Virus record (IMG/VR): IMGVR_UViG_3300032225_000329 | Location: 342-64,341 of that record | DNA: 64,000 bases | Reading direction: 5' to 3' (one strand) | Origin: a virus | Taxonomy: Duplodnaviria > Caudoviricetes | Made by a program: the position numbers and the translations under genes | Part shown: piece after piece, positions 56,250 through 59,290 of the stretch | How positions within the stretch are numbered: the stretch's first letter is position 1 | Layout of the letters: every line of letters begins with the position of its first letter | Notes under the pieces: generated by a model | Told to the model about the DNA's origin: nothing | The model's input: only the letters and a program-made list of their open reading frames with translations | The model's database searches: none

Positions 56250-56763
56250 AGAACACTGTTGCAACTGTAATGTTAGTCATATAGGCGTACGTAGTTAATG
56301 CGCTACGAATACCTTCGCCGGGTAACAAAAAGTAGTTCTGGTACGTGTCCCCAGCAACAGTCTCAAACGTAACAAGCCAAGAAGCCAAATTACCACTTAC
56401 ATAAGCACAAGCTGGGGTGCCCGTAATAGTAAGAGAGTTTGGGCTAGTCACAGTAAAAGTATTGTCGGTTAACTTAGTAATTATGTAATTACCGGGAAAA
56501 CCAGCGCCGCCCGTACCGTCAGTAAAAGTAATGCCAACTCTATCACCTGTACTTAACCCGTGAGAGGATTTTGTAACAGTAATAGTTGTCCCAGATTGCG
56601 CATAAGTCCCCGTTACGGGGGCAGTTGTCGTGCTAAAAAAATCAATCTGCCCCGCAGAAGCACCGCCCCTAATAGAAATGGATTTAATCCGCGACGGAGA
56701 CTGTGGAACAATAAAGCCACTTTGATGTAAATGACCGCTTAGAACGTCTGTTTGCATGGTCAT
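56242..56763 (-). CDS. Virion structural protein
   Basis: MTMQTDV, TITVTKSSHGLSTGD beta insert, LLPGEGI, TVFYG. Confidence 0.75.
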   Translation of the reverse strand: MTMQTDVLSGHLHQSGFIVPQSPSRIKSISIRGGASAGQIDFFSTTTAPVTGTYAQSGTTITVTKSSHGLSTGDRVGITFTDGTGGAGFPGNYIITKLTDNTFTVTSPNSLTITGTPACAYVSGNLASWLVTFETVAGDTYQNYFLLPGEGIRSALTTYAYMTNITVATVFYG

Positions 56764-56775
56764 AACGACCTCCTA

Positions 56776-57231
56776 TTAGACGTTTTGCTGACCGTACAAC
56801 GGATCGACGACGAAGTAAGTGAGGTAGCCACCAACAGTGCCAGCGCCAGAAGTATCAATAGTCACAGTTACGTAGCTTAATTCGCTAATAGCTGTGAGTG
56901 TCAGACCGCTAGTAATAACGCCAAGCGAAGATACAGTTAAGTTATTAGCAATAGACGCGCCAGTAGCTGTACCAGAAACTACGCCTAAAGTGCCAAGGTC
57001 GATAGAACCTGTACCTGCATCGTTAATAACTACGCCGGTAACAACAGCACCTGCTGGGAGAACTAAATAAGTAGTGAGTAGTGTTGAGTCAACAGCTACT
57101 TTAGTGGCGGTAGCAACGGATGCATCAGCGATATAAAACTCTGCTGCCATCATGCCTGAACCGCAATACGACGTACGAGTTTGATCGCCGCCGCCAGAAC
57201 GCCAAATACTTTGGGTGGTAGAAACTGCCAT
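56776..57231 (-). CDS. Putative capsid decoration/cement protein
   Basis: 151 aa beta-rich, LPAGAVV; first gene of the second late operon. Confidence 0.6.
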   Translation of the reverse strand: MAVSTTQSIWRSGGGDQTRTSYCGSGMMAAEFYIADASVATATKVAVDSTLLTTYLVLPAGAVVTGVVINDAGTGSIDLGTLGVVSGTATGASIANNLTVSSLGVITSGLTLTAISELSYVTVTIDTSGAGTVGGYLTYFVVDPLYGQQNV

Positions 57232-57240
57232 GATAAATTG

Positions 57241-57317
57241 TCCTCACATGCGAGTTAAGTGCGACGATATGCATGTAACAGGCCGGGGCCATTCGTACGC
57301 ACCGGATTTCCCGGAAT
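57241..57317 (-). ncRNA. Candidate double-pseudoknot cis-regulatory leader
   Basis: Three crossing helices (order A-B-A'-C-B'-C'); the last abuts the GAGGA SD. Confidence 0.55.
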
Positions 57318-57323
57318 ATTAGT

Positions 57324-57351
57324 GTTATAACATAACCGTAAAAAAATGCAA
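57324..57351 (-). promoter_or_regulatory. Minus-strand promoter TTGCAT-N12-ATGTTATAAC
   Basis: Same architecture as 3630-3657. Confidence 0.7.
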
Positions 57352-57367
57352 GTATACTCTTAGCATT

Positions 57368-57769
57368 ATGCCAGCTAAAGACAAAGAACGCCGAAATGCT
57401 ATAAATCGGGCGTCCTATACTCGAAATAAAGAGCATCGGCAAAAAAAGGGTCGAGAGAGTAAAGCATTAGCTAAAGAAAAATGGAAAGCATTTAAAAGTA
57501 CATTATCGTGTGTACAGTGTGGACAAAGCCATCCCGCTACTCTAGACTTCCATCATATTGAAAGGCACCCTTCCAACCGTAAAGTTAATAAGTTATTAAC
57601 TAATAAAGCTTATCTACAAGCAATGGAAGAAACAAAAAGATGTATGGTTTTATGTAGTAATTGCCACCGAATACATCATCACAATGAGCGCCAAGAAAAA
57701 AAGAAAAAGGAGGCCGAAGCCTCCTTAAATCATACTACTTCAACCCACTCATCTGACTCTTCGTCGTAG
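57368..57769 (+). CDS. HNH endonuclease
   Basis: CVQCG...LDFHH...CMVLCSNCHRIHH; opposite strand to its neighbours. Confidence 0.88.
   Translation: MPAKDKERRNAINRASYTRNKEHRQKKGRESKALAKEKWKAFKSTLSCVQCGQSHPATLDFHHIERHPSNRKVNKLLTNKAYLQAMEETKRCMVLCSNCHRIHHHNERQEKKKKEAEASLNHTTSTHSSDSSS
57698..57726 (-). terminator. Intrinsic terminator (minus strand)
   Basis: AAGGAGGC-TTCG-GCCTCC-TTTTTCTTTTTTT, just after the stop of the acidic gene. Confidence 0.88.
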
Positions 57770-58020
57770 TAGTAAACGACTTCATCTTCGTCAACATACC
57801 AAACAGTGCCGTCTTCAGTAACTTCAGCCCAATCACCCAAGTCGTCATCAAAGTAATAGTCAACGTCTTCTTCTTCGTCGTAAAACCAAATAACGCCATC
57901 TTCGTCGATATCAAGTTCTAAATCATATTCTTCGTCTAACTCTTCGTCTTCAACCAATTCTAAGTCCAACGAATCCAACAAATCATCAAGGTCAAACGCC
58001 ATAGTAACAGTTACAATCAT
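57730..58020 (-). CDS. Extremely acidic small protein with aromatic repeats
   Basis: GGAG SD before ATG 58020; 42 of the last 90 residues are D/E, with no K/R/H. Confidence 0.75.
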   Translation of the reverse strand: MIVTVTMAFDLDDLLDSLDLELVEDEELDEEYDLELDIDEDGVIWFYDEEEDVDYYFDDDLGDWAEVTEDGTVWYVDEDEVVYYYDEESDEWVEVV

Positions 58021-58102
58021 GATAATCTCCGTAGTCAAATTAGCAACCTCGCCCGGCTGCAAAAACTATCCTACACCACGATTATGACAAATCAAAAACG
58101 AG

Positions 58103-58381: not shown

Positions 58382-59290
58382 TTAAGCACCAGCCGAGCCG
58401 TACATGCCCAGTGGATCAGACCAACCGAACGAATAACGCTCACGAGCCTTGTAACGTACGTTACCGGTATCGAAGTCGCCGTCCATCGAGTTAGCCAAAG
58501 GCGAACGAACAAAGTGCTTCATGCCGTTTGGAACGTCAGTGGTCAAGAACCATGCGTTTGTGTCGGTCAAGAAGTGATTGATCGTATAGCCTTCAGGGAT
58601 CGAACCGTTGTTCTTCAATGCGTTGATGTCGTTATCGTTAGTGCCGACGCGGAGTTCGGTTTCCAACAAGCGAGTAGCAACGAACTGGAGAGCTGGTGGA
58701 ACAATCAGCTTTTTAGGTTTAGCAGCGATCAACAGACCACGTTCATCTGTCCAAGCAGCGATTTGAATTACAGCGTTTTCCAACGAAGTTTCATTCAAGT
58801 CAGCGGCAGTTGTAGGGATGTTGCTGTTGAAACCACCAGAAACAAGCGGATGCGAAGCCGAGAACAGAGCTACGTTATCGCCACCCGGATAGGATGAGGA
58901 GAAGCCGTTGTTCAAGACGTTTGCAGCTTTAACTTGTTTAGTGTACGACATAGCACGAGCCAAAGCTTTGGTGTAACGAGCAGACAAACTGTCGTACAAG
59001 TTGTCTTCGATGGCCTCTTCGGTCAGCGAGAAACCCAAAGCAATAGTTTCGTGGTTGTATCGTGCTGTCCAAGCTTCTTGTGCGTTGTCGTAACGAATTG
59101 CACTACCTTCGTTTTTGACAGGCGCAGCGCTGAAACCTGAAAGTTTAGTTTCTTCTTCAAAAGAACGCTCAGAGGTTTCAGTTTCGTAAATCTCTTTGTG
59201 TTCTTCACCGTAACGAGCGTACTCCATACCAAACAATGCGTTCAGTCCGGGGAGCAGCTCTTTCAGTAGTTGTGCGCGTGAAATAGCCAT
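58382..59290 (-). CDS. Major capsid protein
   Basis: MAISRAQLLKELLPGLNALFG, FEEETKLSGF, KPKKLIVPP, RERYSFGWSDP; follows the scaffold, ends in a strong terminator. Confidence 0.88.
   Translation of the reverse strand: MAISRAQLLKELLPGLNALFGMEYARYGEEHKEIYETETSERSFEEETKLSGFSAAPVKNEGSAIRYDNAQEAWTARYNHETIALGFSLTEEAIEDNLYDSLSARYTKALARAMSYTKQVKAANVLNNGFSSSYPGGDNVALFSASHPLVSGGFNSNIPTTAADLNETSLENAVIQIAAWTDERGLLIAAKPKKLIVPPALQFVATRLLETELRVGTNDNDINALKNNGSIPEGYTINHFLTDTNAWFLTTDVPNGMKHFVRSPLANSMDGDFDTGNVRYKARERYSFGWSDPLGMYGSAGA

Follow-up and report, generated by a model that had tools for sequence, protein, structure and literature searches.

A covarying double-pseudoknot leader RNA precedes a probable capsid cement gene in lake and ocean phages

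A short leader RNA with a predicted double-pseudoknot fold lies directly upstream of a late gene in the 64,000-nucleotide stretch of phage DNA analysed here (the window), and comparison of homologous sequences confirms it as a real, evolutionarily conserved RNA knot. Members of its family occur in hundreds of phages from lakes and oceans, cultured SAR11 phages among them. The 151-aa product of the gene behind it is a probable capsid cement protein, and we therefore refer to the RNA as the cement leader. It is probably a cis-acting translation-initiation and 5’-end element, forming a conserved 5’-leader family of HTVC023P-type and related aquatic phages.

All six strands that a sequence-only reading of the window had proposed on the minus strand are present, as are the Shine-Dalgarno (SD) sequence and the ATG (Table 1). 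Helix C can be extended to 8 bp (57278-57271 with 57251-57244), taking in the first two SD bases. Taken in isolation, helices A, B and C (8 bp) have energies of -8.2, -11.1 and -8.6 kcal/mol. The nested minimum free energy of the window’s leader is unremarkable (-19.8 kcal/mol, z = +0.59 versus shuffles), while a score for three interleaved helices gave 48 compared with 37.6 +/- 3.7, within the top 0.9% of 1000 dinucleotide shuffles. The window copy by itself is modestly unusual (p≈0.01 versus shuffles); the decisive argument that the predicted fold is more than chance is comparative and comes from homologous leaders.

Table 1. Features of the cement leader and its surroundings in the window (positions count from the first letter of the window).
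Feature	Position	Strand	Detail	Basis
Intrinsic terminator	57707..57726	-	closes upstream head-gene transcript
HNH endonuclease gene	57368..57769	+	divergent; upstream of leader promoter	phrog_3106, E=4e-20
-35-like hexamer	57346..57351	-	TTGCAT; 16-bp spacer to -10	sequence
Extended -10	57324..57332	-	TGT-TATAAC: TG 57332-57331, TATAAC 57329-57324	sequence
Whole leader RNA	57237..57317	-	covariance-model R1 match	46.3 bits, E=1e-10
Helix A, 5’ strand	57310..57314	-	CCGGG	sequence; covariation
Element 2	57302..57305	-	CCGG; possible partner of A or A’; its last G belongs to helix B
Helix B, 5’ strand	57293..57302	-	GUGCG-U-ACGA; bulged U at 57297	sequence; covariation
Junction J2	57288..57292	-	AUGGC in the window	alignment
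Helix A, 3’ strand (A’)	57283..57287	-	CCCGG	sequence; covariation
Helix C, 5’ strand	57271..57276	-	ACAUGC; extendable to 57278	covariation
Junction J4	57268..57270	-	AUA, 3 nt	alignment
Helix B, 3’ strand (B’), DNA letters	57259..57267	-	TCGTCGCAC	sequence
Helix B, 3’ strand (B’), as listed among RNA parts	57259..57267	-	UCGUCGCAC	covariation
Junction J5	57252..57258	-	UUAACUC; last 3 nt CUC are the 5’ strand of candidate pairing D
Helix C, 3’ strand (C’)	57246..57251	-	GCAUGU	covariation
Shine-Dalgarno (SD)	57241..57245	-	GAGGA; first 2-3 nt pair in C extension or pairing D
Start codon of 151-aa gene	57229..57231	-	ATG	sequence
151-aa gene	56776..57231	-	probable jellyroll capsid cement (decoration) protein	AF2 model, PDB matches

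Relatives of the 151-aa protein number about 476 in IMG/VR, and those among 1.8 billion proteins gave 50 representative clusters. At every homologue locus with enough upstream sequence (more than 90 IMG/VR and metagenome loci, with protein identity down to ~37%), the leader lies directly before the gene. An alignment-free search for three interleaved stems yielded the order A-B-A’-C-B’-C’ in 56/56 distinct leaders. A covariance model holding helices A and C only (R1) found exactly one match per locus, that in the window being the sole one in 64 kb. When 30 diverse members were aligned by R1 with filters off (the A4 alignment), 95.6% of cells were paired in the three-helix structure, compared with 27-40% when the partners were slid, and 17 of 20 pairs showed double-sided (compensatory) changes; the covariation score was 0.577 against 0.188 in shuffles and was reached by 0/500 of them. 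Helix B, which had been left out of R1, was 91.3% paired on A4, with compensatory changes in seven of its nine pairs. A second model, R2, held only helix B and a short further pairing, D (see below). On the R2 alignment A and C together were 98.8% paired with 10/11 pairs compensatory: 98.7% and 4/5 pairs for helix A, 98.9% and 6/6 pairs for helix C. Because B was tested on R1 (A and C) and A and C were tested on R2 (B and D), each helix is backed by an alignment that was not fitted to it. The strand pairs are diverse as well, with 35 distinct variants of helix B and 12 distinct pairs for helix C. Covariation upstream of homologues of 56776-57231, which had been suggested as a check, is thus seen for all three helices, and it bears out the claimed double-pseudoknot topology with its three helices in the order A-B-A’-C-B’-C’. 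We consider this comparative support exceptionally clean.

The helices were scored on Infernal alignments. MAFFT alone misaligned helix C’ and the L057 group. With default filters R1 missed loci L057 and L059; the leaders of HTVC027P, 023Pt_psg01 and L168 were missed by R1 even with filters off and were parsed by hand. The motif is kept where the downstream protein is 37-58% identical (L161, L163, L165-L168, L171). In L166, helix A has 6 bp with two A-U pairs. The most remote motif carrier, L168 (1160-1259; 37% protein identity), keeps the bulge in B and has an extra 6-bp hairpin (CGGAUG/CAUCCG) that holds A’ in its loop, so that helix A becomes a loop-to-5’-end pairing.

Cultured phages carrying the motif were reached via the capsid protein. 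DSL-LC04 and the Pelagibacter phage HTVC023P were matched by both R1 and R2 (22-44 bits), the match lying behind the capsid gene and before the gene that follows. In HTVC027P and 023Pt_psg01 the architecture is retained and all the helices differ in sequence (A ACUGUA/UACAGU, B UUUACAUAG/CUAUGUAGA, C CCUAG/CUAGG); these two were recognisable by hand parse only. One copy was found in each of five complete genomes searched, and one in the window. The leaders of DSL-LC04 (L174 2554-2631) and metagenomic L161 (68-148) are near-identical, with the same A, C and junctions; the cement proteins behind them are too divergent for tblastn at 1e-3. Judging from such comparisons, the leader RNA travels with the head module and not with the protein behind it.

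Three further leaders were seen without the full motif. Those of the Planktothrix phage Pag-Yong1 (L173 2504-2607) and the Roseobacter phage CRP-901 (L178 1804-1943) each have a hairpin with the loop GACUGAC(G/A), resembling J2 plus A’, and may be reduced descendants of the full knot. CRP-901 also has two copies of GACAG, the second next to the SD, and a single CUGUC able to pair with one or the other. The third, at L170 (1-126), precedes a 32%-identical homologue and is too short for B’ and C’; it has GC-rich hairpins and a UUCG tetraloop followed by GGCAGAC, and would represent either a different solution or a leader that is not homologous.

The junctions are conserved too. J2 is 4-7 nt long and reads ACUGA or ACAGN in most members, its first A and fourth G being invariant among 31 aligned sequences; the fourth position is C (ACGCG) in the hand-parsed HTVC027P and 023Pt_psg01. 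J4 has 3 nt, the last of which is an invariant A, and the B’-to-C’ linker has 6-9 nt. The freshwater L016-type phages and marine HTVC023P have J2 ACUGA, J3 GCAGAC and J4 NGA in common, with helices that show no likeness. Such junction conservation between very distant members is likewise characteristic of RNAs that bind a ligand or catalyse a reaction. In most freshwater members A or A’ could pair instead with element 2, which L161, L163, L171 and the cultured phages lack. We rejected element 2 as a universal switch partner: it fits A and A’ equally, shows one independent double change and is absent in several lineages. Among the leaders examined we found no family-wide conserved alternative (switch) structure, neither element 2 nor pairing D being universal.

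At its 5’ side the leader is preceded by a predicted sigma70-type promoter. In 57 of 67 distinct upstream regions of the leader family, the -10 hexamer ends 8-10 nt before helix A. What lies further upstream in these 67 regions varies between a terminator, an HNH gene, a GIY-YIG gene and small ORFs; where a terminator precedes the leader, its loop gives a -35-like TTGTGC or TTTACG at 17-bp spacing. In L016, L019, L026 and most of their relatives the capsid-gene terminator overlaps the leader promoter, ~45 nt upstream of helix A, and one hairpin appears to double there as terminator and -35 element. A simple promoter scan did not list the window’s promoter, owing to its weak -35. Given the conserved promoter geometry, +1 is placed 0-4 nt before helix A, and the primary 5’ end is likely to lie there (3-6 nt before A in the window).

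At the other side, all lineages have the end of helix C between -3 and +3 nt from the SD core. Pairing can reach the initial SD bases by extension of helix C (GA in the window, GAGG in the L022 type) or by overlap with helix C, as in HTVC027P (CUAGGAG). A third route is pairing D, which joins 3-5 bp between the end of the B’-to-C’ linker and bases after C’. This pairing was 81% paired, compared with 39-68% when slid, and has three covarying pairs, giving moderate support for a short fourth pairing that involves the SD; it is weak or absent in the marine phages HTVC023P and HTVC027P. Masking of the SD varies by lineage from 0 to 4 nt. Within the coding sequence we detected no RNA constraint: synonymous sites in codons 2-45 vary freely. 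From this we conclude that the RNA element stops at the start codon, discarding an extension into the gene, and that the strong conservation of the N-terminus is at the protein level. Both boundaries given by the sequence-only reading therefore hold, the predicted start just after the promoter through promoter geometry conserved across the family, and the end at the SD through the position of helix C.

The window spans almost the whole of a complete phage genome of 64.3 kb that has terminal repeats; the plus strand carries the replication genes and the minus strand the late genes. Read along the minus strand, the portal gene, a scaffold-like gene and the gene for the major capsid protein (58382-59290) are followed by a strong terminator, two small ORFs, a second terminator, the leader and the 151-aa gene, from which tail and ejection genes run on without a break in a late operon of ~31 kb. 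The leader had been proposed to head a late transcription unit, and this is where it lies. One of the small ORFs between the capsid gene and the leader region (57730-58062, minus strand) has its own terminator. Most relatives lack this ORF, and there the leader follows the capsid terminator directly. The end of the ORF and its terminator are overlapped by the 3’ end of the window’s HNH gene. Homing endonuclease genes were observed at one shared spot, from the capsid-gene terminator to the leader promoter: HNH in the window, and GIY-YIG with NUMOD3 in L171/L172 (L171 681-1400). Where a homing endonuclease has been inserted, the leader promoter shows a recognisable -35 (TTGCAT or TTGACA).

The 151-aa protein had no family in PHROGs or Pfam, and neither blastn of the region nor tblastn of the protein gave matches in 50,697 phage records. 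Its AF2 model is all-beta (pLDDT 85), with the cement proteins of cyanophage Pam1 and Ralstonia phage GP4 as best PDB matches and the KHP30/40 and BPP-1 cement proteins as weaker structural matches. The positional counterpart in DSL-LC04 is annotated ‘cement protein’. By its modelled fold, the product is a probable jellyroll capsid cement protein. Its first ~26 residues (57154-57231) are the most conserved part, in homologues down to 30% identity, with R11, S12, G14, G15 and D16 invariant; the same residues are modelled as disordered (pLDDT 44-53), and the jellyroll body diverges quickly. This has the look of a conserved arm for capsid anchoring, joined to an exposed domain that is variable.

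Transcriptomes of HTVC027P class the gene behind the motif (gp62) as ‘Late’ (PMC12753301 supplementary file 3). In the same data gp59 to gp63 have TPM values of ~75,000, 12,000, 36,000, 28,500 and 9,400, so that abundance falls behind the capsid gene and goes up again locally at gp61-gp62 (PMC12753301 supplementary file 3). This profile is compatible with a separate, abundant transcript.

We propose that transcription would begin at a host sigma70-type promoter, with its predicted start a few bases before helix A. In the emerging RNA, A (5 bp) would close first, then B (9 bp, bulged) across A, and then C (6-8 bp) across B, giving a compact double pseudoknot of three helices in which the final strand stops precisely at the SD. 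This fold would set the access of the 30S subunit to the SD, which would either lie flush against the knot or have its first 2-4 bases paired via the C extension or pairing D; it would also leave almost no free 5’ end for RNase E or RppH. Effects on translation and mRNA stability would follow, exerted constitutively or in response to a factor. We regard a role in translation initiation as the most likely one because helix C ends so close to the SD core and pairing often takes in the start of the SD. The fixed SD contact, the partly paired SD and a 5’ end that is hardly free point to this role, combined with shielding of that end.

A rival reading is a sensor. In such a scheme, a new riboswitch class or protein-binding operator, a small molecule or a phage or host protein would stabilise or open the knot and so switch cement translation. 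Its chance of being right is modest. The T4 gene 32 leader, the rpsO/S15 and alpha-operon/S4 pseudoknots and the autoregulation of P22 scaffolding protein are established precedents, and the scheme would fit covarying helices with junction nucleotides conserved across very distant phages, SD bases paired in most lineages, and element 2 as an alternative partner for A or A’ in most freshwater members. However, no alternative structure is conserved in the family as a whole, and as neither element 2 nor pairing D is universal (each is missing in several lineages) a classical two-state riboswitch is disfavoured. Nor does any ligand have a metabolic connection with the regulated gene. Similarity between leaders is moreover uncoupled from the cement protein: DSL-LC04 and L161 combine similar leaders with dissimilar proteins, and CRP-901 has a DSL-LC04-like cement protein behind a different leader. 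Since leader similarity does not track cement-protein similarity, autoregulation by the cement protein is disfavoured too. We think it unlikely that the knot is a new class of sensing or catalytic RNA, whether a riboswitch that senses an ion or small molecule or an RNA that processes itself. If it were, it would control the timing or the amount of capsid cement made in the most abundant known SAR11 phage group and its freshwater relatives.

It is improbable that the leader only stabilises the mRNA from its 5’ end or caps it against nucleases, taking no direct part in translation initiation. Stabilisers of the ompA type have pairing within about 0-4 nt of the 5’ end, and helix A begins a few nucleotides from the predicted +1 in nearly all members (~0-4 nt; 3-6 nt in the window). 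The fold is also compact and stable by its helix energies, and the gp62 transcript is locally elevated in HTVC027P. What a cap would leave unexplained is that the fold is locked to within 3 nt of the SD in every lineage and that the SD bases take part in covarying pairing. Known stabilisers, furthermore, manage with simple hairpins; since a plain 5’ hairpin would suffice for stabilisation, the elaborate fold hints at a more specific role, as do the junction nucleotides common to freshwater and marine members.

A direct test of the leader’s function is feasible, as there are cultured carriers (HTVC023P, HTVC027P and DSL-LC04) and an existing HTVC027P infection RNA-seq. At ~80 nt the leader is small enough for structure determination, and it may show how phages match the supply of cement protein to capsid assembly.

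Double pseudoknots are typical of small ribozymes, and the pistol ribozyme has the strand order P1-PK-P1’-P2-PK’-P2’, which equals A, B, A’, C, B’, C’ in the cement leader; a leader at the very start of a long operon could also be a put-like RNA that makes polymerase termination-resistant over ~31 kb. We nevertheless consider a self-cleaving ribozyme, a processing signal or a put-like function extremely unlikely, given that no Rfam ribozyme matched (thresholds below), that the pistol P3 and the HDV P3 and P4 hairpins are absent, that the well-conserved promoter accounts for the 5’ boundary, that no strong intrinsic terminators downstream need to be overridden and that put RNAs are two plain stem-loops. 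More specifically, pistol was rejected because its P3 hairpin and conserved core nucleotides are absent, helix B has 9 bp and not 6, and RF02679 gave no match; for an HDV-like ribozyme J2 is too short to hold P3/L3, a P4 hairpin is missing from the A’-to-B’ stretch, and no Rfam HDV family matched. An antiterminator of the put type (HK022) was set aside because the leader is a pseudoknot. Terminator-like sites downstream of the leader were not enriched over shuffles, and strong intrinsic terminators were not found among them.

The leader was compared with known RNA families by cmscan against Rfam 15, a check that the sequence-only reading had put forward. No family matched the leader at E<=10 within 56500-58000 of the window, and no match at E<=1 overlapped the leader loci of DSL-LC04, HTVC023P, HTVC027P or 023Pt_psg01. 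Mu-gpT-DE (RF03012) is a phage RNA motif named for its site downstream of Mu-gpT-like major capsid genes. The cement leader sits downstream of the major capsid gene; the capsid protein of L167 has only a faint PF10124 match, and the record of a distant relative notes ‘Mu, GpT’. RF03012 was rejected: in five genomes (the window’s, two from IMG/VR, DSL-LC04 and HTVC023P) its best score was 16.2 bits against a cut-off of 49, at unrelated positions only and none at the leader. Screening of IMG/VR intergenic regions by Fremin, Bhatt and Kyrpides (2023) gave thousands of covarying candidates upstream of genes (PMC10690425). The main text of that paper describes nothing like the cement leader, which may be among its unnamed ‘DNAVirus_X’ candidates. 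A search of the literature for a described motif of this kind found nothing relevant. On these sequence and model searches, the cement leader is a separate family without a match in Rfam.

In its layout it resembles two groups of leaders. The riboswitches preQ1-II, SAM-II and SAM-V are likewise compact, leader-terminal pseudoknots in which the final strand contains or adjoins the SD. The cement leader differs from these in having no Rfam match, two linked pseudoknots instead of one, and an SD that adjoins the last strand or is included in it only in part; it also lacks a ligand-related gene neighbourhood and a conserved switch helix. The E. coli rpsO/S15, alpha-operon/S4 and T4 gene 32 leaders likewise place a 5’-leader pseudoknot next to the ribosome-binding site; of these, the alpha-operon element shares the double-pseudoknot form, and that of T4 gene 32 the location in a phage leader at an mRNA 5’ end. 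These three show no sequence or model similarity to the cement leader, their strand order differs and, unlike in those operators, the protein encoded downstream is an unlikely repressor. Altogether, pseudoknotted leaders that govern translation are known, and the cement leader stands apart from them as a separate family of unusual topology, in which a central 9-bp helix is crossed on both sides.
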